NCBI GenBank assembly: GCA_963555825.3 | Contig: CAUVXB020000002.1 | Span: 3,392,001-3,456,000, forward strand | Reading direction: 5' to 3' | DNA from: Alphaproteobacteria bacterium | GTDB lineage: Bacteria > Pseudomonadota > Alphaproteobacteria > JAAXGF01 | DNA length: 64,000 nt | Part shown: positions 13,933 through 34,747 of the stretch, piece by piece | Layout: every line of letters begins with the position of its first letter | How positions within the stretch are numbered: the stretch's first letter is position 1 | Notes under the pieces: model-generated | What the model was told of the DNA's origin: nothing | The model's input: the letters and a program-made list of their open reading frames with translations, nothing else | Databases searched by the model: none | Translations under genes and position numbers: made by a program

Positions 13933-14392
13933 AAAAGTTGTGTATGGGCTGATCATGCGGCGGCGCGATCCTGGCGTTCTCCATCTACGAATTTGACGCC
14001 GCGAATGATCTCGGCGAGATGGTTCGATCCATCGAGTTTTCTCCATTTTCTCTGAGCGCACTGGCATAGTTTGAAGACCATGGCCATCGCCGTCTTGCGC
14101 GACAGGCAGCCCTTGGTCCGGTAGGTGCGCAGACGAACCGTGGCGAACGTGCTCTCGATGGGGTTGGTCGTGCGTACATGCTTCCAGTGCTCGGCGGGGA
14201 ATGTCAATGGCGGAGCAAAAAGGGACCACCTCGGCGGTGTAAGAAGGGACCGCTTGGCGGCTGCGGGCTTGTCCCCGTAGTCCACGGGAGGGCCCCGCGC
14301 GCGACGCGGCGTGCCCTCAACAGGCTGACGCGGCGGCGCGCGCGGGAGGGACCTGTGGGCCCACGGGGTCAAGCGTGGGCTGGGTGGTCGGT

Positions 14393-15157
14393 TCAGTTAG
14401 CAGTCGGGGTTTGACGCCTGCGGCTCTGGTTGAGCCTGTAGCTGTCACCGTTCATCTCGAGGATGTTGACGTGGTGGGTGAGGCGATCGAGGAGCGCGCC
14501 GGTGAGGCGCTCGGAGCCGAACACCTCGGTCCATTCGTCGAAGGGCAGATTGGTGGTGACCAGGGTCGAGCCCCGCTCGTAGCGTTGGCTGAACACCTCG
14601 AACAACAGCTCGGCGCCGGTCTTCGACAGCGGCACGAAGCCGAGTTCGTCGACGATCAGAAGCTTGTAGGTGGCGAGCTTCTTCTGGAACCTCAGCAGCT
14701 GCTTGTCATCGCGGGCCTCGATGAGTTCGTGGACCAGCGCGGCGGCGGTGATGAAGCCGACCGAGAGGCCCTTCTGGCAGGCCGCCAGGCCGAGACCGAG
14801 GGCGATGTGGGTCTTGCCGGTCCCACTGTTGCCGAGCGCGATGAGGTTCTCGCGGCGCTCGATGTACTCGCAGCGGGCCAGCTCCAGGACCAGCGCCTTG
14901 TTGAGCGAGGGGATGACCTTGAAGTCGAAGCTGTCGAGGCTCTTGACCACGGGGAAGCGCGCCGCCTTGATGCGCCGCTCGACCATGCGGCGCTCGCGGT
15001 CGATCAGCTCGAGCTCGGCGAGTCTCAACAGGTAGCGGACGTGATCGACGCCTTCCGAGGCGCACTGCCGGGCGATCTTGTCGTACTCGCGCAGGAAGGT
15101 CGGCAGCTTCAGCGTCTTGAGGTGGTGGGCGAGCAGCACTTGCGGTGTGTCGGTCAT
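14393..15157 (-). CDS. istB: IS21 helper ATPase IstB
   Basis: GNSGTGKT Walker A, LIVDELG Walker B, LLDRLTHH; ATGA overlap with istA. Confidence 0.95.
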   Translation of the reverse strand: MTDTPQVLLAHHLKTLKLPTFLREYDKIARQCASEGVDHVRYLLRLAELELIDRERRMVERRIKAARFPVVKSLDSFDFKVIPSLNKALVLELARCEYIERRENLIALGNSGTGKTHIALGLGLAACQKGLSVGFITAAALVHELIEARDDKQLLRFQKKLATYKLLIVDELGFVPLSKTGAELLFEVFSQRYERGSTLVTTNLPFDEWTEVFGSERLTGALLDRLTHHVNILEMNGDSYRLNQSRRRQTPTAN

Positions 15158-16653
15158 GCGCCGAGCCCCGACAGCAGGCTCATGTACGACTTGGCGGACG
15201 TCATCGCGACCCGGGCGCGCGGCAGATACGGATAGACGTCGAGGTTGAGCCTGGGCGGCCGCCGCTCGATGCGGCACAGTACCAGGTGCTTCACCGCATC
15301 AAAGCCGATTGCGCCGAGCCGCAGGGCGTCGCCGACCGCACCCTCGACCTCCTCGAGCCGGAAGGTCTCCAGTAGACGGAGCACCTGGACGTACTCGCGC
15401 TTGCCTGCCTTGCCCATACGAGCTTCGAGGAGCCGCCGCAGAGTGATGAAGGCCTCGGGCAGGTCCCAGCCCGCCAATGGCGCGGCCTGGTCGAGGGCGC
15501 CGATCTTCTGCTCGATCAAGGGCAGGTAATGCAGCGGGTCGAAGATCAGGTCCTCGCTGTCGTAGGACCGGCGGTGCCGGGCGATCACCTCGGCCCCGCA
15601 GCTGATCACCACCTCATCGACGTAGCCCCGGATGAGCACCTCACGGTGGCCGTAGGCCACGGGCACGGAATAGTCGTTGCTGCGGTAACGCACCAGCGAC
15701 AGCGAACTCGCCCGTCCAGGGCGCTTATCGCAGGCATCATAGGGAGCAGGCGGCAATGGCAAGAGAACTTGACGATCCCGCTCGAGACGCTCGCCGATGG
15801 TCTCCTTGTGGCCCCGCAGCCGCGCCGCCTGGCGCCGGCGGCACTGTTCGGCGAGAGCATCGTTGAGGGCCGCGAAGCTCTCGGCACGCGGGACGGGGAC
15901 CAGGAAGTTCCGCCGGATGAAGCCGACCAGTCCCTCGACCTTGCCCTTGTCGTTGCCCTTGCCCGGCCGGCCGAACCTGTCCTCGAACAGATAGTGGGAC
16001 TGAAGCTCCGTGAAGACGCGCGTTCGCTGCCGCTTCCCATCGCCCAGGATCCGGGCAACCGCCAGCTTGGTGTTGTCGTACAGGATGGATCGGGGGACGC
16101 CGCCGAAGAAGGCAAACGCCGCGTTGTGGCCATCGCAGAATGCTTCGGTCGTCTCCGCCGGATAGGCCGCAACAAAGCAACCATCACTGTGGGGAAGGTC
16201 GAAGGCAAGGAAGTGGATCTTCCGTAACGCGCCGCCGATCACCGCCATCGCTTCGCCGAAGTCCGCCTGGGCGTGACCGGGGGAATGGGAGAGTGGCACG
16301 AACACCTCACGCGACCGAAGCCCCTGCTCACGAACGTAGTCCTTCACGATGGTGTAGCCGCCCGTGAAACCGTACTCGTCCCGGAGGCGGTCGAAGATGC
16401 GCTTCGCAGTGTGCCGTTGCTTGCGGTGGCTGGTCCGATCGTCTTCCAAGATCCGATCGATGATTCCCGTGAACGGACCCAGCTTTGGCCGCCTCGGCGG
16501 CGCGCTTCGGCGATACCCTGGCGGCACCGAGAACGACAGCATCTTACGGACCGTCTTGCGGTCTACACCAAACACCCGCGAGGCCTCGCGGGTGCTCATC
16601 CCCTCGACATGACACGCCCGCCGAACCCGTGCGTACAACTCCACCCGATACAT
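15154..16653 (-). CDS. istA: IS21 transposase IstA
   Basis: 499 aa; AQADFG, YDN, KGKVE motifs. Confidence 0.95.
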   Translation of the reverse strand: MYRVELYARVRRACHVEGMSTREASRVFGVDRKTVRKMLSFSVPPGYRRSAPPRRPKLGPFTGIIDRILEDDRTSHRKQRHTAKRIFDRLRDEYGFTGGYTIVKDYVREQGLRSREVFVPLSHSPGHAQADFGEAMAVIGGALRKIHFLAFDLPHSDGCFVAAYPAETTEAFCDGHNAAFAFFGGVPRSILYDNTKLAVARILGDGKRQRTRVFTELQSHYLFEDRFGRPGKGNDKGKVEGLVGFIRRNFLVPVPRAESFAALNDALAEQCRRRQAARLRGHKETIGERLERDRQVLLPLPPAPYDACDKRPGRASSLSLVRYRSNDYSVPVAYGHREVLIRGYVDEVVISCGAEVIARHRRSYDSEDLIFDPLHYLPLIEQKIGALDQAAPLAGWDLPEAFITLRRLLEARMGKAGKREYVQVLRLLETFRLEEVEGAVGDALRLGAIGFDAVKHLVLCRIERRPPRLNLDVYPYLPRARVAMTSAKSYMSLLSGLGA

Positions 16654-18962: not shown

Positions 18963-19897
18963 TGGAGTGCGCCCCTGGACCCGGACAGGTGATGTATAAG
19001 GAGTTGACCGGGGACGCCGGGCTTTCAGAGGATGAAAGCCATGGCAAAGCACCGCACATACAGTATCGAATTCAAGCGGCAGGTGGCGCAGGAGTTTCTC
19101 GCCGGGGAGAGCCTTCACGGGCTCTCCCGGCGCCACGACGTCTCGCGTAACTTGATCCGTGTCTGGGTGGCGAAGCTGGAAGCCGGCACCTACGACGAAG
19201 ATGCCGAGGCTGCCGATCTCCTGCAGGAATACGAGGCGAAAATCGCTGCCCTCGAGCGCCTGGTCGGCCGGCAGGCGCTGGAGATCGAGTTTCTAAAAGG
19301 GGCTCTGAAAAGCGCACCCCGGCCGAGAAGCGCGACTACATCCGTGATTGCCGGCCCGATGGTCTCTCCATCGCCCAAGGATGCCGACTGATGGGCCTGC
19401 CACGCTCGACCTATTACGACGCGCCGGTGGCCACGGCCGACGAGGCCGAGATCGTCGCCCGCATCGAGGCGATCTGTGAGGAGTTCGAAGCCTACGGCTA
19501 TCGCCGTGTCGGTGCCGCGCTGCGCCACCAAGGCATCATCGTCAACAGCAAGAAGGTCCGCCGTCTGATGCGCGAACACGACCTGCAGCCCAGGCGCCGC
19601 AAGCGCTTCGTCGCCACCACTGACAGCGATCATGACGGGCCGATCTTCCCCAACCTTGCCAAGGACGTCACGGCTGACGGGCCGAACCAGCTCTGGGTCG
19701 CCGACATCACCTACGTCGCGATCGCTGTCGGCTTCGTCTATGTCGCGGTCATCCTCGATGCCTGGTCGCGCCGGGTCGTGGGCTATGCGATCAGCCGATC
19801 GATCGATGCGCGTCTCACCATAGCGGCGCTCAAAGCGGCCATTCGATCGCGGCGGCCCCCGGCGGGCTGCATCCACCATTCGGATCGCGGCTCGCAG
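18963..19897 (+). mobile_element. IS3-family element, 5' part (OrfA 19032-19391, OrfB 19391 onward), cut by IS30
   Basis: IRL TGGAGTGCGCCCC…CCGGACA; WVADITY…HHSDRGSQ then IS30 sequence. Confidence 0.88.
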
Positions 19898-21369
19898 GGC
19901 GGATTCAACCGGTCGTCGCAACACGTTCAGTTTGACTGGCCTGCAAGCACTGGTCCAGAGCTTCGGCGGGAGTTCTCCATCCGAGGGTCTTGCGGGGCCG
20001 TGTATTGAGCGCGTCAGCAACAACTGCGAGTACGTCCGGACTGTGTACGCTCAGATCGGTTCCTTTCGGGAAGTACTGTCGAAGCAGTCCATTGGTGTTC
20101 TCGTTCGTTCCGCGTTGCCAAGGGCTGTGCGGTTCGCAGAAGTAGACGGGAAGGCCGGTTGCGATCCGCAGATCCGCATGCCTGGCCATCTCTGCTCCCT
20201 GGTCCCAGGTCAGCGAGCGGCGAAGCTGCGCTGGCAATGTCGTGATCGTCCGGGCGATGGCATCGCGAACCGCTTCAGCCCCATGACCGGCAAGCGCAGG
20301 CCCGTTCTTCACGCGCGGGACGGTGCCGTGGCCTTCCATTCGGGGAAGATGCAGCAGCATTGTGAACCGCGTGGTGCGTTCCACCAGAGTGCCGATCGCC
20401 GATCTGCCCAAGCCGATGATCAGGTCACCTTCCCAGTGTCCGGGTACGGCCCGATCAGCTGCTTCCGCCGATCGTTCACTGATCATGATCTCAGGCGTGA
20501 CGAAGGATTTGCCCCGCCGGCGGCTACGTGCCCGAGGCACGCGCAGTGCCCTTCCCGTGCGAAGGCAGGCGGTCAGCTCACGACGGAGTGCGCCGCGGCC
20601 CTGTACGTAGAGCGCCTGATAGATCGCCTCATGACTGATCCGCATCGCTTGATCCTCGGGCCCGTCCCCAGGATAGTCGATCCGAAGACGGTGCGCGATC
20701 TGCTCAGGACTCCAGGCCCTGGCCCATCGCCTGTGCTGCCGCGGCCCATGCCGACGACCGTTCCAGACGACGCGTGGCCCCTCGATCACCGTTCCATCCG
20801 GTGCCGAGATCCGACCCGCAAGCCGATCCTGCACATAGCGCCGCAGCGCCTCATTCGTTGCCAGCTTGGCTGGCTTCGGCCTTTTGGCGGATCGATCAGC
20901 ATGCCACTGCGCCGTCGTTGCTCGGTAGTCCAGGCCACCGCTTCGGGTCGCCGCGTTGCGCCGCACCTCGCGGGAGATCGTCGACGGTGCTCGCTCCAGC
21001 CGGCAAGCAATATGACGTATGCCTCTTCCCTGGGCGCGCAGAAGAGCAATCTCCTCACGTTCCTCGAAAGACAGGTAACGTCCTGACAGCGGCTTGGCCG
21101 ATTGCGATAAATGTGATGGTGGCATGCCGCCCGACCTCCGGAACCACCTCGAGCCTACCGGAGGGGATACACCGGCATCTCGGGCCGCGTCCTCGCTCGA
21201 ACGCCCCGTCGCAATCGCTGCCCAGAACCGAACAAGCTCCTCACGCCGTGCCGAGTCCGGTCGACCTGGCGAATGCAACTTGCTCCGTCCAGACCGATCC
21301 GACCGCCGTCTGCGTACCGTCATAGCAACCTCCTATGCCAGAGTGTTGCGACGACCGATTGAACTCGCC
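19898..21369 (-). mobile_element. IS30-family element
   Basis: TIRs GGCGGATTCAACCGGTCGTCGCAACAC / (rc) GGCGAGTTCAATCGGTCGTCGCAACAC; CAG on both sides. Confidence 0.92.
19905..21323 (-). CDS. IS30 transposase
   Basis: GHWEGDL, TWDQGAEM, PWQRGTNENTNGLLRQYFPK. Confidence 0.95.
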   Translation of the reverse strand: MTVRRRRSDRSGRSKLHSPGRPDSARREELVRFWAAIATGRSSEDAARDAGVSPPVGSRWFRRSGGMPPSHLSQSAKPLSGRYLSFEEREEIALLRAQGRGIRHIACRLERAPSTISREVRRNAATRSGGLDYRATTAQWHADRSAKRPKPAKLATNEALRRYVQDRLAGRISAPDGTVIEGPRVVWNGRRHGPRQHRRWARAWSPEQIAHRLRIDYPGDGPEDQAMRISHEAIYQALYVQGRGALRRELTACLRTGRALRVPRARSRRRGKSFVTPEIMISERSAEAADRAVPGHWEGDLIIGLGRSAIGTLVERTTRFTMLLHLPRMEGHGTVPRVKNGPALAGHGAEAVRDAIARTITTLPAQLRRSLTWDQGAEMARHADLRIATGLPVYFCEPHSPWQRGTNENTNGLLRQYFPKGTDLSVHSPDVLAVVADALNTRPRKTLGWRTPAEALDQCLQASQTERVATTG

Positions 21370-21676
21370 CAGTACTGCTCAGACGCATACCAGGCGCGCC
21401 TCGGTGAACTCGGTTTCCTCGCCTCAATGAGCGGTAAGGGAAATTGCTATGATAACGCCGTCGTCGAGACCTTCTTCAAAACCATCAAGTCAGAACTGAT
21501 CTGGAGGACTGTGTTCATGTCAAGAAGCCAAGCTGAAACTGCCATAGCCGGATACATCGATGGGTTCTATAATCCAGTCCGTCGGCACTCGACGCTGGAC
21601 TTCACAAGCCCCGTCAAATTCGAGGCAGAAGCAATGCAAACGGTGTAGGGCGCCTCCACTTTTCCTGGATGGGTCC
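21370..21676 (+). mobile_element. IS3-family 3' part (OrfB C-terminus to TAG 21648, plus IRR)
   Basis: QYCSDAY…SMSGKGNCYDNAVVETFFKTIKSE…FYNPVRRHS; ends GGGTCCA. Confidence 0.88.
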
Positions 21677-22065: not shown

Positions 22066-23170
22066 CTTGCCTATCCGGTTAACGCCCATGACCGCTACAT
22101 GTAGGGTGCCGCCACTCTCCCGAGTAAAGCTCGGCATAGGTTGGAGCAGAGGTGTCGCCCGCGATGCCGAGCAATGAGCGGAAGGCGTTGAACGGGTAGA
22201 ACCGCCTGTTGAAGCGGAAGGTGAACTCGTTGAGGTAGGCTTGTAGGTGCTGGTGGCTAACGCCGTGGTGGATACCGATCAGCCACGTCTTCAGGTTGGC
22301 GAAAACCAGATGGATGATCGGCAGGTATTGCTCGGCAACCTCTGGATCACCACACTCGGCAACAGCGAAGTGCTCATAGCCGCGCTTACCGAGGCCAGCA
22401 TAGCCGCTCCAATCGTCAGTAACGATCAGCGATCCCGGCGCGACGGTGCTCTCGACGAACCCACAGAGCGACTCGGCGCTACGGTCGAGCACGACGGCGA
22501 GCCGAACGCGTCCGGCATAGCGTCCGTCTTTCCGGTTGTCGAGCTTGGTGCCCGGCTTTCGATGACGCACCTCGATGGCACAGGAGACGGGAACCTTGTG
22601 GTGAACACCACGGCCTTCCCCACGCGTTCGCCCGCCAACCCAGGTTTCGTCCACCTCAACATGGTTCTTGGGCTGTCCACCGATCCTGTCTTGGTTGGGC
22701 CGCACCATGCCCGAGCGGAGCTTGTGGAGAATTTGAAAGGCCGTCTCGTAGCGCGAAAGACCAAGTTGCCGCTGAAACTGCACGGCGGACATGCCGGGCG
22801 TCTGACTGGCGACCAGATAAGCGGCCCAGAACCAGACGTTCAGCGGAGTGTGGCTACGCTCCATCACTGTTCCCACCGTCAGCCCGGTGTTCTGGCGGCA
22901 CTTGCGGCAGCGCAGGACGCCAGGGCGGTTTTCAAAGTGGAACGGCTCTCCCGCCGTGCCGCAGTGCGGGCAGGCAAAGCCGTCTCCCCAGCGGGCTTTC
23001 TCCAGGTAGGCGGCGCAGGCCGCATCATCGGGGAAAAGTCGCTGGAACTCGGGTAGCGAATGCGGGAATGGGAGATCGGCGCGGTCGAGAACATCCATGG
23101 CGCGCTCCCCTATATCCGGTTTGCGCCCATTCTAGCCCTAGTGGGTGTGGGTGTAAACCGGATAGGCAAG
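22066..23170 (-). mobile_element. IS1595-family element (Zn-ribbon transposase), complete
   Basis: TIR CTTGCCTATCCGGTT; 8-bp TSD ATTCGTTC (22058-22065, 23171-23178). Confidence 0.93.
22079..23098 (-). CDS. IS1595 transposase
   Basis: CPHCG/CRKC Zn ribbon, VEVDET, TDDWSGY, YLNEFTFRFNRR. Confidence 0.93.
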   Translation of the reverse strand: MDVLDRADLPFPHSLPEFQRLFPDDAACAAYLEKARWGDGFACPHCGTAGEPFHFENRPGVLRCRKCRQNTGLTVGTVMERSHTPLNVWFWAAYLVASQTPGMSAVQFQRQLGLSRYETAFQILHKLRSGMVRPNQDRIGGQPKNHVEVDETWVGGRTRGEGRGVHHKVPVSCAIEVRHRKPGTKLDNRKDGRYAGRVRLAVVLDRSAESLCGFVESTVAPGSLIVTDDWSGYAGLGKRGYEHFAVAECGDPEVAEQYLPIIHLVFANLKTWLIGIHHGVSHQHLQAYLNEFTFRFNRRFYPFNAFRSLLGIAGDTSAPTYAELYSGEWRHPTCSGHGR

Positions 23171-27157: not shown

Positions 27158-28098
27158 TGGACCCTGCTGACGAAAGTGGAGACGTCCTGCGATAGGATTT
27201 TGATCGCAGGAGGTGCAAATGTCGAAGCAGAATGGGAACAAGGGCCGGCGGTTTGATCGGGCCTTCAAGGAAGAAGCCGTCCGTCTTTTACAGACGAGCG
27301 GGCGCAGGCAGCGGCAGATAGCAGGAGATCTAGGGATCAGTGTCAGCGCGCTCGGACGCTGGGTCACAGAATTGCGTGCGGAGGATTTGCTTTCCGGTCC
27401 GCATGAGGATGCAGCGAAGGAGATTACCCGCCTACGCCGAGAGCGTGATCTGGCCCGTCAGGAACGTGATCTGCTAAAAAAAGCGCTGGCCTTCTTCGCC
27501 AGGGAAAGTCGATGAGGTTCCGGTTCATCGACGCGGAGAGGGCCGGGTTGGCGATGCCGATATTCCGCCTGTGCAGACTGCTGCAGGTCAGCGTCTCAGG
27601 CTTCTACGCTTGGCGCAATCGCGGCCCAAGCCAGCGACAGCTCGATGACATGGTTCTACTCGCCCATGTCCGGGCAGCCTTTCGGCGCAGCCGCGAGAGC
27701 TACGGTGCAGAGCGGGTCCATCACGAGCTTGCCGAGAATGGGATCGAGGTTGGACGCCATAGGGTGGCTCGGCTGATGCGGGGAAATGGGTTGTCTCCAA
27801 AACGGAAACAGAAGTTCAAAAAGACGACGGACAGCCAGCACAACAAGGCCGTCGCATCGAACCTTCTCGACCAGAACTTCTCCGCCGAGGCACCCAACGA
27901 GAAATGGGCTGCCGACATCAGCTATATCTGGACGGCACAGGGCTGGCGGTACCTGGCCGTCATGCTCGACCTCTACTCCCGGCGCGTCATCGGCTGGGCC
28001 GTGGGCGCTCGCATGACCAGCGACCTGCCGCTCAGGGCGCTTAACCGTGCTATCGGGCTGCGCCAACCTGGCGCCGGTGTGATCCACCATAGCGATAG
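27158..28098 (+). mobile_element. IS3-family element, 5' part (OrfA 27219-27515, OrfB 27512 onward), cut by IS110 at HHSD-R
   Basis: IRL TGGACCCTGCTGACGAAAGTGGAG; A7 slippery run near 27476; WAADISY…VIHHSD. Confidence 0.88.
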
Positions 28099-28486
28099 TG
28101 AGTATCTGCGGGCCGGTTCCCTCGGAGTGACCTGACCCGCACAGCGATAGACGCATCTAGACTGATAGGGCCGGCCGCCCTTGGGTGGCTTGACCCACAC
28201 TCAGATCGACCGAGATGTCATTCCCCGGACATGTCGGCCACCCGGGGGCAACCGGTTGAGGTTCCGACCTCGACCGACATCGTGACCTGATGAGAGCCCG
28301 GCCTTGGGCGCCCCGTCACTGTCGTGTCCGACATCGGCTGAGTTCGGAGCCAACCCCTCCACCCATCATAGACCAGGGGGCGGACATGGCGACTACAACA
28401 GCCGACAACATCCAGATCATCGGTGGCGTCGACACCCACCAGGACCTGCACACCGCCGCCGTCGTGAGCCACGACGGAACGGTGCT
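28099..28486 (+). mobile_element. IS110-family left end plus N-terminus of the recombinase (ATG 28387), cut by IS21
   Basis: ~290-nt non-coding leader, then MATTTADNIQIIGGVDTHQDLHTAAVVSHDGTV (RuvC-like first Asp). Confidence 0.8.
28110..28350 (+). ncRNA. Candidate IS110 bridge RNA (boundaries approximate)
   Basis: CACAGCGATAG (28140-28150) matches the insertion flank CATAGCGATAG (28088-28098); several hairpins. Confidence 0.5.
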
Positions 28487-28606
28487 TGTCAGAACGGCAG
28501 AGCAATAATCCCCCACTGAAGCGGCCGGTCGATCCGGCTGCGGCGGACCAAAATGGGACCGCGTATAGCCTTCTGTCAGGGTTGCTCTGACTGGAAGGCG
28601 GGGGGG

Positions 28607-30106
28607 ATGTATCGGGTGGAGTTGTACGCACGGGTTCGGCGGGCGTGTCATGTCGAGGGGATGAGCACCCGCGAGGCCTCGCGGGTGTTTGGTGTAGACC
28701 GCAAGACGGTCCGTAAGATGCTGTCGTTCTCGGTGCCGCCAGGGTATCGCCGAAGCGCGCCGCCGAGGCGGCCAAAGCTGGGTCCGTTCACGGGAATCAT
28801 CGATCGGATCTTGGAAGACGATCGGACCAGCCACCGCAAGCAACGGCACACTGCGAAGCGCATCTTCGACCGCCTCCGGGACGAGTACGGTTTCACGGGC
28901 GGCTACACCATCGTGAAGGACTACGTTCGTGAGCAGGGGCTTCGGTCGCGTGAGGTGTTCGTGCCACTCTCCCATTCCCCCGGTCACGCCCAGGCGGACT
29001 TCGGCGAAGCGATGGCGGTGATCGGCGGCGCGTTACGGAAGATCCACTTCCTTGCCTTCGACCTTCCCCACAGTGATGGTTGCTTTGTTGCGGCCTATCC
29101 GGCGGAGACGACCGAAGCATTCTGCGATGGCCACAACGCGGCGTTTGCCTTCTTCGGCGGCGTCCCCCGATCCATCCTGTACGACAACACCAAGCTGGCG
29201 GTTGCCCGGATCCTGGGCGATGGGAAGCGGCAGCGAACGCGCGTCTTCACGGAGCTTCAGTCCCACTATCTGTTCGAGGACAGGTTCGGCCGGCCGGGCA
29301 AGGGCAACGACAAGGGCAAGGTCGAGGGACTGGTCGGCTTCATCCGGCGGAACTTCCTGGTCCCCGTCCCGCGTGCCGAGAGCTTCGCGGCCCTCAACGA
29401 TGCTCTCGCCGAACAGTGCCGCCGGCGCCAGGCGGCGCGGCTGCGGGGCCACAAGGAGACCATCGGCGAGCGTCTCGAGCGGGATCGTCAAGTTCTCTTG
29501 CCATTGCCGCCTGCTCCCTATGATGCCTGCGATAAGCGCCCTGGACGGGCGAGTTCGCTGTCGCTGGTGCGTTACCGCAGCAACGACTATTCCGTGCCCG
29601 TGGCCTACGGCCACCGTGAGGTGCTCATCCGGGGCTACGTCGATGAGGTGGTGATCAGCTGCGGGGCCGAGGTGATCGCCCGGCACCGCCGGTCCTACGA
29701 CAGCGAGGACCTGATCTTCGACCCGCTGCATTACCTGCCCTTGATCGAGCAGAAGATCGGCGCCCTCGACCAGGCCGCGCCATTGGCGGGCTGGGACCTG
29801 CCCGAGGCCTTCATCACTCTGCGGCGGCTCCTCGAAGCTCGTATGGGCAAGGCAGGCAAGCGCGAGTACGTCCAGGTGCTCCGTCTACTGGAGACCTTCC
29901 GGCTCGAGGAGGTCGAGGGTGCGGTCGGCGACGCCCTGCGGCTCGGCGCAATCGGCTTTGATGCGGTGAAGCACCTGGTACTGTGCCGCATCGAGCGGCG
30001 GCCGCCCAGGCTCAACCTCGACGTCTATCCGTATCTGCCGCGCGCCCGGGTCGCGATGACGTCCGCCAAGTCGTACATGAGCCTGCTGTCGGGGCTCGGC
30101 GCATGA
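28607..30106 (+). CDS. istA: IS21 transposase IstA
   Basis: Same protein as 15154-16653. Confidence 0.95.
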   Translation: MYRVELYARVRRACHVEGMSTREASRVFGVDRKTVRKMLSFSVPPGYRRSAPPRRPKLGPFTGIIDRILEDDRTSHRKQRHTAKRIFDRLRDEYGFTGGYTIVKDYVREQGLRSREVFVPLSHSPGHAQADFGEAMAVIGGALRKIHFLAFDLPHSDGCFVAAYPAETTEAFCDGHNAAFAFFGGVPRSILYDNTKLAVARILGDGKRQRTRVFTELQSHYLFEDRFGRPGKGNDKGKVEGLVGFIRRNFLVPVPRAESFAALNDALAEQCRRRQAARLRGHKETIGERLERDRQVLLPLPPAPYDACDKRPGRASSLSLVRYRSNDYSVPVAYGHREVLIRGYVDEVVISCGAEVIARHRRSYDSEDLIFDPLHYLPLIEQKIGALDQAAPLAGWDLPEAFITLRRLLEARMGKAGKREYVQVLRLLETFRLEEVEGAVGDALRLGAIGFDAVKHLVLCRIERRPPRLNLDVYPYLPRARVAMTSAKSYMSLLSGLGA

Positions 30107-30867
30107 CCGACACACCGCAAGTGCTGCTCGCCCACCACCTCAAGACGCTGAAGCTGCCGACCTTCCTGCGCGAGTACGACAAGATCGCCCGGCAGTGCGC
30201 CTCGGAAGGCGTCGATCACGTCCGCTACCTGTTGAGACTCGCCGAGCTCGAGCTGATCGACCGCGAGCGCCGCATGGTCGAGCGGCGCATCAAGGCGGCG
30301 CGCTTCCCCGTGGTCAAGAGCCTCGACAGCTTCGACTTCAAGGTCATCCCCTCGCTCAACAAGGCGCTGGTCCTGGAGCTGGCCCGCTGCGAGTACATCG
30401 AGCGCCGCGAGAACCTCATCGCGCTCGGCAACAGTGGGACCGGCAAGACCCACATCGCCCTCGGTCTCGGCCTGGCGGCCTGCCAGAAGGGCCTCTCGGT
30501 CGGCTTCATCACCGCCGCCGCGCTGGTCCACGAACTCATCGAGGCCCGCGATGACAAGCAGCTGCTGAGGTTCCAGAAGAAGCTCGCCACCTACAAGCTT
30601 CTGATCGTCGACGAACTCGGCTTCGTGCCGCTGTCGAAGACCGGCGCCGAGCTGTTGTTCGAGGTGTTCAGCCAACGCTACGAGCGGGGCTCGACCCTGG
30701 TCACCACCAATCTGCCCTTCGACGAATGGACCGAGGTGTTCGGCTCCGAGCGCCTCACCGGCGCGCTCCTCGATCGCCTCACCCACCACGTCAACATCCT
30801 CGAGATGAACGGTGACAGCTACAGGCTCAACCAGAGCCGCAGGCGTCAAACCCCGACTGCTAACTGA
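30103..30867 (+). CDS. istB: IS21 helper ATPase IstB
   Basis: Same protein as 14393-15157. Confidence 0.95.
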   Translation: MTDTPQVLLAHHLKTLKLPTFLREYDKIARQCASEGVDHVRYLLRLAELELIDRERRMVERRIKAARFPVVKSLDSFDFKVIPSLNKALVLELARCEYIERRENLIALGNSGTGKTHIALGLGLAACQKGLSVGFITAAALVHELIEARDDKQLLRFQKKLATYKLLIVDELGFVPLSKTGAELLFEVFSQRYERGSTLVTTNLPFDEWTEVFGSERLTGALLDRLTHHVNILEMNGDSYRLNQSRRRQTPTAN

Positions 30868-31020
30868 ACCGACCACCCAGCCCACGCTTGACCCCGTGGG
30901 CCCACAGGTCCCTCCCGCGCGCGCCGCCGCGTCAGCCTGTTGAGGGCACGCCGCGTCGCGCGCGGGGCCCTCCCGTGGACTACGGGGACAAGCCCGCAGC
31001 CGCCAAGCGGTCCCTTCTTA

Positions 31021-32195
31021 TACCAGTGAGCGCCTGAATTGACTCTCGGGATATTCATTGATGGCGGATGATGGCGGATTGTGATTCTATGGTCTCCCAC
31101 CAGATGTGGGGGATGTCATGGGATCAGCACTCAAGATACGGGATGATTTGACGCCTTTGGAGCTTCGGCGCTGGGCTCGCGTGGAATCGTACGGTCGAGC
31201 GGCGGCGCGGGCCTATGGGATCGCGAATGCTTTGGAGGAGATGCCCCGGGCTGATGCCGCGCGGCTTGCGGGGATGGATCGCCAAACGCTTCGCGACGCG
31301 GTTGTTCGTTACAATGCAAAGGGATTGGAGGGGCTTCACGACCGTCCAAAGGGCTACTCGCCGCGGCGGCTGACGGCAGACGAGGAAGCGGCGCTGGCGG
31401 CGGTCATCATCGCCGGGCCGGAGCCTGAGCGCGACGGGGTTTGCGCCTGGACCCGGGCCGATCTGTGCCGCTGGCTGGAGGAGCGCTTCGCCAAGACCTA
31501 CCACCCCTCGAGCATGACCCGGGTTCTACGGCGGATGGGATTTTCCCGCCAGAAGGCGCGCCCGAGCCACCCGCGAAGGGACGCCGAAGCGCAGGAGCGC
31601 TTCAAAAAAGGGGGCTTCGCGACATCCTGAAGGCGACCGCCGCGGCGCATCCCGACAAGCGCCTACAGCTGTGGTTTCAGGATGAAGCGCGCGTCGGCAA
31701 CAAGGGCCGGGTGTGTCACCGGTGGTGGCGCAGGGGCGAGCGTGCCCCCGGGACGCGTCAAATCGGCTACCAGTGGGCCTACATCTTCTCCGCCGTGCGC
31801 CCGGACACCGGCGACGACGTCACCCTGGTGATGCCGAGCGTCAACGCCAAGGTCATGGACCTGTTTCTCGCACACTTCGCCGATACCCTGGACCAGGATG
31901 CGCACGCCGTCATGATGTGCGACGGCGCCGGTTGGCACGACGAGCGCGCCCTCACCGTCCCCGACAACGTCACCTTGGCGCTGTTGCCGCCTTACAGTCC
32001 CGAACTCAACCCCGTCGAGCGGGTTTGGCTCTACCTACGCGAACGCTTCCTATCGCTCCGCGTCCTCGACGACACCGAGGCCATCATCGACGCCTGTTGC
32101 CAAGCATGGATCGACCTCATCGCAGAACCGGATCGTATGCGAACCCTCTGCGCCTATCCATGGATCATGAAGGTGATTTCATAGGCTCACTGGTA
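31021..32195 (+). mobile_element. IS630-family element A, copy 1 (transposase 31118-32184 via -1 frameshift)
   Basis: TIR TACCAGTGAGC / GCTCACTGGTA; AAAAAAGGGGG slippery site at 31604; FQDEAR, DGAGWH, PPYSPELNPVE. Confidence 0.92.
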
Positions 32196-32445
32196 TCAGA
32201 CATCAATCAGGCCAGACTGCTGACAGCACGCTGTCACTAGACCCATGGTAGTTAGACCGACCTTGCTTAGGTGGAATCACCGCTGGGTTCCTGGTGAGGC
32301 GTTCGCTCTTGGTGGAGGAGTCACGAGTTTGAATCGCGGATCAATGTTCAGAGAGCGCGCAAAATCAAGAGCTTGCAGGCCTGTATCCGGATAGGCGCCG
32401 GGATGGCCCGCTCACGGGGCCTGTTCTCACCAACGAAGGAGAGGG

Positions 32446-34027: not shown

Positions 34028-34747
34028 CGGGCTGTCCTAGCTAAGGGCGTTTCTGTCTCAAAATAATCCATGTCTTCAATTGGTTAAGCAGTTCTCGGTG
34101 GTCACCTCCGTTGAACCGCCATTCGCACTCCTTGAGGAACAGGTGAAAGCTCTGTTTCGGGACGCCATTGAAGCGCCGTAAATGCCGCTTCGCCTGGTTC
34201 CAGAAGTTCTCGATCCCGTTGATATGGCTCCGCTCGTCGACGAACCGCTCCGAGTGATTGATCCGAACATGGTGGAAGTCCGAAACGTCCAGGGCATCAT
34301 AGCTCGAAAAGCCGTCCGTATAGACGATGCTGTCAGGCCGGATCATACGCTCCATAATCGGCATCAACGTGGCAGTCCGGGCATTGGGAATCATCGCCGT
34401 GTAGACCTTCCCACCTCGCTTCAAAAGCCCGAAAACCGGGACTTTTCCGCCAGCGCCTCGACCCCGCTTGCCTTTGCGGCGGCCGCCAAAATAACTCTCA
34501 TCAACCTCGATCTCTCCGGCAAAAGGCGAGGCCTTCTCCATTTCCTCGGCAATCACCTTGCGAAGCCGAGTATAAAACGAGGCCGCCGTGTTCCGGTGGA
34601 CGCCAACCAGTTCGGCTGCTGCCCGAGCCGTCGTACCCGCAACGAAGTGCTCAATCAGACGACCGCGCTTCCAATCACTGAGCCGGCTTTTCCTCTCGTA
34701 CATCCCGCCATCCTAGCCTAAGCATGCCGCTTAGCTAGGACAGCCCC
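34028..34747 (-). mobile_element. IS1595-family (IS1016-like) element, copy 1, transposase 34041-34703
   Basis: TIR GGGCTGTCCTAGCTAAG; 8-bp TSD TTGTGCAA; EVDESYFGG, YTDG, INGIENFW. Confidence 0.95.

Follow-up and report, generated by a model that had tools for sequence, protein, structure and literature searches.

A relic of an IS110-family element with a predicted bridge RNA aimed at catalytic-motif codons of IS3 transposases

In a 64,000-nt stretch of the genome of an Alphaproteobacteria bacterium (contig CAUVXB020000002.1, positions 3,392,001–3,456,000; the window), an IS3-family transposase gene is cut straight after an aspartate codon by the left end of an IS110-family insertion sequence (IS). 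The best explanation of the whole, and in our judgement a very probable one, is that this left end is a dead 5′ remnant of an element 1361 nt long from the ISEc21/ISMch6 lineage, the bridge RNA of which targets the His-Ser-Asp|Arg/Gln-Gly codons of IS3 transposases. Intact copies have a non-coding left end of 289 nt followed by the gene of a DEDD/serine transposase, and by analogy with IS621 and ISEc21 the RNA would be made, bound by the transposase and used to guide recombination. The target loop would present a left-target guide (LTG2) on its 5′ side along with the right-target guide, RTG (UUCCCCG), on its 3′ side; the donor loop would hold a left-donor guide (LDG, AUGAGAGC) as well as the right-donor guide, RDG (UCACU); and an extra upstream module, in which the target loop's 5′ half recurs, would carry another left-target guide (LTG1). 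The left guides would carry the coding-strand sequence for His-Ser-Asp, the right guide the complement of the Arg/Gln-Gly codons. Insertion without duplication, with the crossover in the last bases of the Asp codon, would destroy the IS3 transposase: OrfB loses its second and third catalytic residues, so a hit IS3 is probably dead.

The initial annotation of this DNA had the same headline, an RNA-guided element directed against IS3 catalytic codons. That headline is correct but has been known since 2024 for ISEc21, which was shown experimentally to be RNA-guided to the codons that surround the second D in the DDE motif of IS3 and was reprogrammed (Siddiquee et al. 2024, Nat Commun, PMC11187229), so the novelty that the annotation implied does not stand. 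The present work adds a new, widespread branch in Alpha- and Gammaproteobacteria, Gemmatimonadota and Actinomycetota-type metagenome-assembled genomes. If the second guide module works, a bridge RNA can widen its target range without loss of specificity, which suggests a bispecific design for the target loop.

Boundaries, copies and target sites of the element

The host gene in the window consists of IS3 orfA (27213–27515, plus strand), coding for a helix-turn-helix protein (Pfam HTH_Tnp_1, E 1.3e-10), and the 5′ part of orfB (27512–28096, plus strand), which ends V-I-H-H-S-D (GTG ATC CAC CAT AGC GAT) and is cut directly behind the Asp codon at 28094–28096. The IS110-family sequence follows at 28097–28488 (plus strand) and corresponds to nt 1–392 of 1361, with 99.7% blastn identity to intact copies over 392 nt. 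It comprises the non-coding left end of 289 nt (28097–28385), which starts AGTGAG, and the first 34 codons of the transposase gene (28386–28488, plus strand; ATG at 28386; MATTTADNIQIIGGVDTHQDLH...); the right end, 3′ of the stop codon of intact copies, is short. An IS21-family element (28489 to at least 30867, plus strand; istA 28553–30106, istB to 30867; Pfam Mu-transpos_C_2/rve and IstB_IS21) breaks off the rest. The window copy is a dead 392-nt relic unable to act.

The assignment to IS110 made in that annotation is borne out by six intact copies and by the family profiles of their protein, P0001 (351 aa). It matches DEDD_Tnp_IS110 (PF01548, E 2.6e-25) over residues 14–158, the window copy keeping residues 1–34, and Transposase_20 (PF02371, E 3e-17), and it scores 183.4 bits, with a cut-off of 140, against NCBIfam NF033542, 'IS110 family RNA-guided transposase'. 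The genome holds six full 1361-nt copies and three fragments, that of the window included; the other two fragments lie at C2:76985–77565 (an internal 581 nt) and C2:2745747–2745852 (the last 106 nt) of the same assembly (G000). The same IS3 sequence abuts six of seven left ends, the seventh (copy 4) following ...CATTCAGAT, and every full copy ends ...CTTGACAAACATGAGAGCGTC. Behind copies 5 and 6, IS3 orfB resumes directly with CGG GGA AGC CAG TAC, that is, RGSQY.

Because three observations agree, the element can be delimited as AGTGAG...GCGTC, inserted between the Asp codon and the next codon without target duplication. First, the related genome G014 contains four uninterrupted copies of one IS3 that read ...CACCATAGCGAC|CAGGGATCG, and two copies read there carry the element at this point. 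Second, in the contigs of all four public runs examined (three RNA libraries, drawn from three studies, and one run that is probably of DNA), a form of the window's IS3 joins position 1501 of locus L005, an intact copy, to position 2863, skipping exactly 1361 nt with ends AG..TC. Third, the NCBIfam IS3 profile (369 positions) is split contiguously: the window's part of OrfB covers positions 90–282 (and positions 2–73 of 102 of Pfam rve), and the right half behind the intact copy (L005:2863–3150) covers 283–369. The core AG proposed in the initial annotation is therefore internal to the element, as uninterrupted copies read GAC|CAG and GAT|CGG, and the crossover falls in the last bases of the Asp codon. 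An AG core with CGTC belonging to the target, giving an empty site HHSD-SV-RGSQ, is ruled out by the same three observations.

Relatives were collected in a scan of species genomes (68 loci, 41–100% protein identity) and a scan of metagenomes (74 loci, of which 62 were examined, the other 12 having no N-terminus, and 39 of the 62 were taken forward). They carry the labels Alpha- and Gammaproteobacteria, Palauibacter, Longimicrobiales, Thermoleophilia, Acidimicrobiia and others. Parsing was entered with 113 loci, 79 of which have a recognisable left end. The final three codons of the left flank read [HN][ST]D in 66 of these 79 (HSD 54, NTD 9, HTD 3), as the annotation's proposal of catalytic HSD|RG codons as the target would have it, clade-wide. 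Where the right junction is known (60 loci), [RQN]G follows in 43, and both motifs occur together in 38. Synonymous codons vary widely at these sites (CACCATAGCGAT, CACCACTCGGAC, CATCATTCCGAC, CTGAATACCGAC), and therefore different IS3 elements have been hit. Among 13 genomes of the same taxonomic family, the window's own IS3 was found only in its own genome, apart from one weak 37-nt match.

All six left halves of the matching IS3 in the window's genome are occupied. In G013 the same holds for all five orfB matches, each of which has an identical 228-aa open frame (two were read as sequence), and in G014 two occupied copies stand beside at least four empty ones. Such repetition could arise by copying of an IS3::IS110 composite, in trans or by duplication, instead of by repeated RNA-guided hits. 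The identical IS3 left flank of at least 100 nt in six of seven copies fits such copying, as do the failure to find an uninterrupted copy of this IS3 in its own genome (its left 100-mer occurs six times, always against the element) and the presence of the matching right half directly behind the element in only two of six cases. We nevertheless consider it unlikely: relatives occupy this codon in a wide variety of IS3 elements, with differing synonymous codons, G014 contains one IS3 both in filled and in empty form, the uninterrupted form of the window's IS3 exists in public runs, copy 4 occupies a look-alike site outside IS3, and the first base behind the element differs (C in copies 5 and 6, A in copy 7). 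Composite copying could at most raise the copy number here, and it leaves the choice of site unexplained, for which repeated guided insertion remains our reading.

A few junctions depart from the common pattern. Copies 2 and 3 join IS3 on their left to unrelated sequence on their right, suggesting that copies have rearranged with one another. Right flanks that begin AGT, like the element's own AGTGAG, in place of an Arg or Gln codon make up 6 of 45 unique flanks in relatives (L017, L025, L031, L032, L046 and L117), and genome copy 2, outside the 45, has one as well; they would fit half-match recombination through the donor-side guide only, and hence rearrangements. In L029 and L030, from one genome, the left flank ...TTCATGAGAGCGAAT resembles the element's right end (LDG match) with AAT replacing TC, and the right flanks differ; this may be a pseudo-donor site or the remnant of a tandem copy.

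Guide-like segments of the left end

The left end probably specifies a bridge (seek) RNA with a target and a donor loop, judging from a consensus fold. RNAalifold applied to 29 distinct aligned left ends gave 54 pairs, or 48 after removal of six invariant LDG–RDG pairs, and over these 97% of cells are paired. Changes on both sides occur in 16 of the 48 pairs, compared with 3.8 ± 1.5 in shuffles (0 of 500 reach 16) and 2–5 in slid controls, the fold having been derived from the same alignment, which favours it. The predicted target-binding loop (28177–28249, plus strand) is closed by a stem of 28177–28194 with 28233–28249 and contains an inner hairpin (28208–28210 with 28217–28219); its helix 3 has changes on both sides in 7 of 15 pairs. 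The predicted donor-binding loop (28264–28347, plus strand) has stems formed by 28264–28286 with 28326–28347 and an apical hairpin (28300–28302 with 28310–28312), and helices 6–8 contribute 7 pairs with changes on both sides. All guide-like segments are unpaired in the consensus, so the motif singled out in the initial annotation is not buried in a stem. A 5′ helix UGCGGG:CCCGCA that would overlap LTG1 was discarded by eye, as it covaries in some cases (e.g. L039), fails in others (e.g. L031) and shifts register in L036.

GAGTAT at 28100–28105 (plus strand) is a candidate −10 element, the partner of which would be TTGACA in the right end once the element is circular (17-nt spacing, hand-counted), and the right end ...CTTGACAAACATGAGAGCGTC with its TTGACA is kept in relatives; by analogy with IS621 and ISEc21, this predicts a promoter across the junction of right end and left end (RE–LE) on the circle. 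As the guides fix a sense orientation, IS3 transcription could also read into the left end, and for IS621 such read-through has been reported to be needed for excision (PMC13626964).

The letters on which the initial annotation relied are all present: the flank CATAGCGATAG at 28088–28098, the motif CACAGCGATAG at 28140–28150, TCACT at 28316–28320 and GCCCC at 28310–28314. Flank and motif agree at 10 of 11 positions, the sole mismatch being the His wobble, and the chance of a match of at least 10/11, recomputed over about 281 windows, is indeed ~0.002. The 9-mer within this match is the target, whereas the last two letters, AG, are the first two bases of the element. The left target CATAGCGAT (28088–28096, plus strand) thus consists of 7 nt and the 2-nt crossover region A-T of the Asp codon, and it is identical at 8/9 positions to LTG1, CACAGCGAU, at 28140–28148 (plus strand; unpaired, in the context UGACCC-N-(9 nt)-N-GAC). 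The annotation saw this first guide and missed a second, LTG2 (CACUCAGAU; 28198–28206, plus strand), on the 5′ side of the target-binding loop. Within the left end, the target loop's 5′ half is present twice in tandem, as ...CCUGACCCG-CACAGCGAU-AGAC and ...CUUGACCCA-CACUCAGAU-CGAC. The N-GAC motif is conserved behind every guide, its letters AG being matched by the first bases of the element. Only LTG2 lies within the target-loop helix; LTG1 lies between the outer helix and the loop stem. Both 9-mers read His-Ser-Asp, one serine codon family each.

An unbiased scan across 38 unique left-end/flank pairs, recording all 9-mers with at least 7/9 identity to the element's own left flank, singled out the same two positions: 28140 in 13 pairs and 28198 in 23, with no more than 3 anywhere else. 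A chance match is untenable because the family-wide scan peaks at these two alignment positions only, and the motif at 28140 is, as the annotation had it, a segment resembling a left-target guide. Left guides and flanks also covary, a check that the annotation had proposed, in a permutation test of 49 unique guide/flank triples with 29 guide pairs (L029, L030, L178 and L179 were dropped for a right-end-like left flank or a misplaced start); relatedness among elements sharing hosts was ignored, which counts against the result. The mean match was 6.82/9 for LTG2 (5.86 shuffled, p<5e-5), 5.76/9 for LTG1 (5.42 shuffled, p=9e-4) and 7.53/9 for the better of the two (6.48 shuffled, p<5e-5). When whole flank sets were shuffled among guide pairs in a block permutation, LTG1 gave p=0.0046, and LTG2 and the better of the two stayed at <5e-5. 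A match of at least 7/9 was reached in 43 of the 49 triples, with LTG2 the better guide in 32, LTG1 in 16 and one tie.

It is also possible, if to our minds somewhat doubtful, that only LTG2 works. LTG1 would then be a leftover of the tandem duplication or serve another role, such as folding or protein binding, and AGC sites would be reached through LTG2 mismatches aided by the RTG or by half-match recombination, which has been reported for IS621 (10.64898/2026.08.31.748434). The position of LTG1 outside the target-loop helix is in keeping with this, as is its weaker permutation signal, including the block result. In several lineages LTG1 looks degenerate and not [HN][ST]D-like (e.g. CACGAUGUU, GUAAAUGUU, UUCAAUGUU), and the distant relatives L050 and L071 show one guide; the experimentally tested relative ISEc21 has no HSD-like 9-mer in its upstream module and works with an RNA of 58–74 nt (PMC11187229).

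The distribution of sites speaks for a working LTG1. Elements with LTG1 CACAGCGAU occupy nine distinct AGY-type sites, which LTG1 matches at 7–9/9 and LTG2 at 4–6/9, and also eleven TCN/ACN-type sites, where the LTG2 match is 7–9/9. In elements within NTD-type IS3s, LTG1 has become AAC-ACU-GAU and matches at 8/9, compared with 4–5/9 for LTG2. The 16 triples in which LTG1 is the better match and the scan peak at its position point the same way, and CACAGCGAU is unchanged between the present element and ISMch6 despite only 57% protein identity. We conclude with moderate confidence that LTG1 and LTG2 both act as guides. The bridge RNA would then hold two interchangeable left guides in tandem modules that address one peptide motif, each with a different family of serine codons (CAC-AGC-GAU and CAC-UCA-GAU); in other hosts the pair would cover two variants of the motif (AAC-ACU-GAU for NTD and CAC-UCG-GAC for HSD). 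We lean slightly towards regarding this as a natural multiplexed, codon-degeneracy-aware guide set for a coding motif. With two interchangeable left guides, one element could invade IS3 genes beyond the reach of a single guide. The first module was also inspected by eye for a right-target guide of its own, but the candidate, UUCCCUCG or the sequence behind LTG1, bears no consistent relation to right flanks and is better explained as a hairpin.

The remaining guides were placed following the rules for IS621, in which LTG and LDG carry top-strand sequence, RTG and RDG are complementary to the top strand (PMC11208160, PMC11208158), and after strand exchange the handshake base 3′ of the RTG reads the donor and that 3′ of the RDG the target (PMC11208158). 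The candidate RTG, UUCCCCG (28221–28227, plus strand), is followed by GA (28228–28229), the complement of donor TC, and the handshake C (28230), and is complementary to the right junction G-TC|CGGGGAA. It thus pairs 7/7 with CGGGGAA, the Arg-Gly codons of the window's IS3. The initial annotation had paired a GCCCC loop with an expected GGGGC flank; the actual right flank, CGGGGAAGCC, has its complement UUCCCCG-GA-C at 28221–28230. An unbiased scan for the complement of the right junction found position 28221 in 11 of 23 cases and other positions in 1. Over 45 unique pairs, the mean RTG match was 3.87, compared with 3.56 when shuffled (p=6.5e-4), and the second position of the RTG tracks whether the flank codon is that of Arg (G) or of Gln (A) (Fisher p=0.012 for counts of 10, 5, 1 and 9).

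On the donor side, the candidate LDG AUGAGAGC (28290–28297, plus strand) is identical to the right end ...ATGAGAGC-GTC and is the sole 8-mer from the right end's final 14 nt that also occurs in the left end. It is invariant in the clade, as are most donor-side segments, which leaves no covariation to test. The candidate RDG (28316–28323, plus strand) consists of UCACU, then GU, the complement of target A-C/T, and the handshake C, and is complementary to the left junction G-AC|AGTGA; the TCACT of the initial annotation, complementary to the first five bases of the element, thus fits the right-donor guide. The three bases after the RTG, GAC, are the complement of the element's terminal GTC, and those after the RDG, GUC, the complement of target GAC (GAT by wobble). 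L076 departs consistently from this pattern: its right end is ATC with GAU in the RNA, and its flank is TAT with GUA after the RDG, placing the handshake A opposite T. Among 61 loci, the right end is GTC in 59, GAC in one (L026) and ATC in one.

The exchanged region would accordingly be the last two bases of the Asp codon, A-C/T in the target and T-C in the donor, with only the pyrimidine in common. At crossover position 8, where donor T meets target A, the RNA is complementary to the post-exchange arrangement, and this position appears to behave like an extra handshake position. Left junctions retain A and right junctions retain T, the top-strand arrangement, in 60 of 61 cases, as expected for a product derived from the top strand. 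It is tempting to speculate, prompted by 10.64898/2026.08.31.748434, that the elements are a natural marker of the transferred strand.

Site choice within the window's own genome agrees with the guides. All seven occupied sites match a guide at 8/9 or better, the IS3 site through LTG1 with an RTG match of 7/7 and copy 4 through LTG2 (8/9) with an RTG match of 5/7. Of the 32 rve-type D|[RQN]G sites that are empty, none matches better than 7/9. Copy 4 lies antisense in an otherwise open reading frame (ORF) resembling a metallophosphoesterase (GDLVH, GNHD), at the look-alike site CAT TCA GAT|CGC GGA. The matches of occupied and empty sites, together with copy 4, therefore indicate that recognition is at the nucleotide level and aimed at particular IS3 sequences, not at IS3 elements at large as the initial annotation had supposed. 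Among the 32 empty sites, 26 belong to uninterrupted copies of an FNTD|QGSQ IS (AATACGGAT|CAGGGCA) that has never been hit; both LTGs match it at 5/9 and the RTG at 5/7.

That the transposase protein itself reads a DNA motif, with guide-like segments that are coincidental or target-derived, is highly improbable. A target that is similar clade-wide could in principle be read by a conserved protein, and most donor-side segments, being invariant, offer no covariation test. RNA guidance has, however, been proven for ISEc21 (PMC11187229) and IS621 (PMC11208160, PMC11208158), and guides and flanks change together here. Single loci have guides identical to their flanks at 9/9 (CACGCCGAC in L039, AACACCGAU in L045 and CACACGGAU in L075), guide and flank shift jointly in L067 (ACUUGUGAU and ACTTGCGAT) and L141 (ACGUGUGAU and ACGTGGGAT), and in L076 both guides end UAU and the flank ends TAT.

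Several points weigh against an RNA-guided element with these guides. The evidence for it is computational throughout, and the window copy is truncated and incapable of acting. The motif [HN][ST]D is missing from 13 of 79 left flanks and [RQN]G from 17 of 60 right flanks, and 6 of 49 triples reach only 6/9. LTG1 falls outside the target-loop helix, the covariation effect of the RTG is small, and the LDG match ends 3 nt back from the crossover, whereas the LTGs reach it; all three 9-mers are equidistant from the UGAC anchor. A single-column covariation scan of left-end columns against flank positions gave no clean diagonal, its top scores being scattered and phylogenetic in appearance. The stability of the single-sequence fold is not significant (z = −1.84; 12 of 200 shuffles as stable), and Rfam gave no match at E≤1 across 3.4 kb around an intact copy. 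The left end is covered by contigs from the three RNA libraries, which is no proof that it is transcribed; no RE–LE circle joint is listed in the contigs of the four public runs, which is not evidence of absence.

Relation to known elements and a sister clade

The closest described systems are ISEc21 and ISMch6. P0001 is 57% identical to the ISMch6 transposase, and a tblastn match to L113, a copy on a Klebsiella plasmid, is likewise 57% identical. By sequence comparison, the present element is a clear relative of ISEc21/ISMch6 but a different IS, not an isoform. Our identification of L113 as ISEc21 rests on a comparison of its transposase with that of ISMch6: the identity of 72% and similarity of 85% are the values that PMC11187229 gives for ISEc21. 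As reported there, the ISEc21 guide RNA is encoded in the upstream non-coding region, with the bottom-strand match 5′ of the top-strand match, as in our element. L113 also shares the site, TIHHSD|AGTAAGAAT on the left and ...GGGCGTC|CAGGGCAG (reading CAGGGC) on the right, and the loop layout CACUCUGAA ... UUUCCCUG-GAC. In contrast, the 9-mer UGAGAUCAC of its upstream module (UGAC-NNN-(9 nt)-N-GAU) is not HSD-like, leaving one evident left guide where our element has two. ISEc21 has moreover been tested at the bench, whereas the present element is known from sequence.

ISMch6 (plasmid pCMU01 of Methylorubrum extorquens CM4; PGAP 'IS110-like element ISMch6 family transposase') resembles the element more closely in its RNA. 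It has both modules, UGACCCG-CACAGCGAU-GGACC and UGACCCG-CACUCUGAU-CGACC, with an identical LTG1, and its right flank is the QGSQY of an IS3 orfB, although its left flank ACGCCGGAC matches neither guide. The main text of PMC11187229 describes for ISMch6 one bottom-strand region with three altered bases and no second guide. A coarse word search of the literature found no second or dual target guide; the supplement (e.g. Supplementary Fig. 12 of PMC11187229) may describe one. The second left guide is what looks new in this lineage.

IS621 (Durrant et al. 2024, PMC11208160; Hiraizumi et al. 2024, PMC11208158) is reported to share the two internal loops and a −35 element in the right end. It differs in targeting REP sequences, in having one LTG and a 5′ stem-loop without a guide, and in the CT core common to donor and target, whereas in our element position 8 is T in the donor and A in the target. 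IS1111-group elements have their guide region downstream of the transposase gene (PMC11187229).

Insertion into other mobile elements has a further precedent. IS4321 and IS5075, of the IS1111 group, are also DEDD-transposase elements, and they insert at a defined sequence of Tn21-family transposons, their terminal repeats, which is non-coding repeat DNA and not the codons of a catalytic motif.

A sister clade (L058, L066, L057, L060, L167 and L177) with 43–47% protein identity has the right end ...TATAGGAGCATC and a single guide module. Its insertions in IS3 orfB are at a different conserved motif: in L058 the left flank is ...GDSYD, with N-A-L-A-E behind the element, and in L066 and L057 it is ...C-W-D. 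Its guides track the flanks (GUCUACGAU vs GCTACGAC, GUCUGGGAU vs GCTGGGAT), and in L060, L167 and L177 the guide matches at 8–9/9 at sites ending GCAAC.

Other mobile elements in the window

The window is rich in insertion sequences (14375–16653, 22079–23098, 34041–34703 and 28489–32226), including two IS1595-type transposases. Within 28489–32226, the IS21 element that truncates the IS110 copy is accompanied by an IS630-like element (31106–32184; Pfam DDE_3), apparently nested in it or adjoining it. A minus-strand ORF pair at 14393–16653 resembles istA/istB by size alone.

A second, different IS3 orfB (...IHHSD RGSQ) lies at 19700–21460 with its D|R site intact; this site, CATTCGGAT|CGCGGCT, matches LTG2 at 7/9 and the RTG at 4/7. 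An IS30-family element (19905–21323, minus strand, 472 aa; ends GGCGGATTCAACCGG.../...CCGATTGAACTCGCC) cuts this IS3 right after RGSQ, three codons past D|R, and the right half resumes at 21369. The knock-out of all six matching IS3 copies, the 26 untouched copies of the poorly matching IS, the YD|NA site of the sister clade and the IS30 insertion three codons away together make conserved transposase motifs look like contested landing pads for mobile elements. The IS30 element looks like a second one that favours the same conserved IS3 stretch, and the same insertion after RGSQ is also found behind genome copy 7 and at locus L016.

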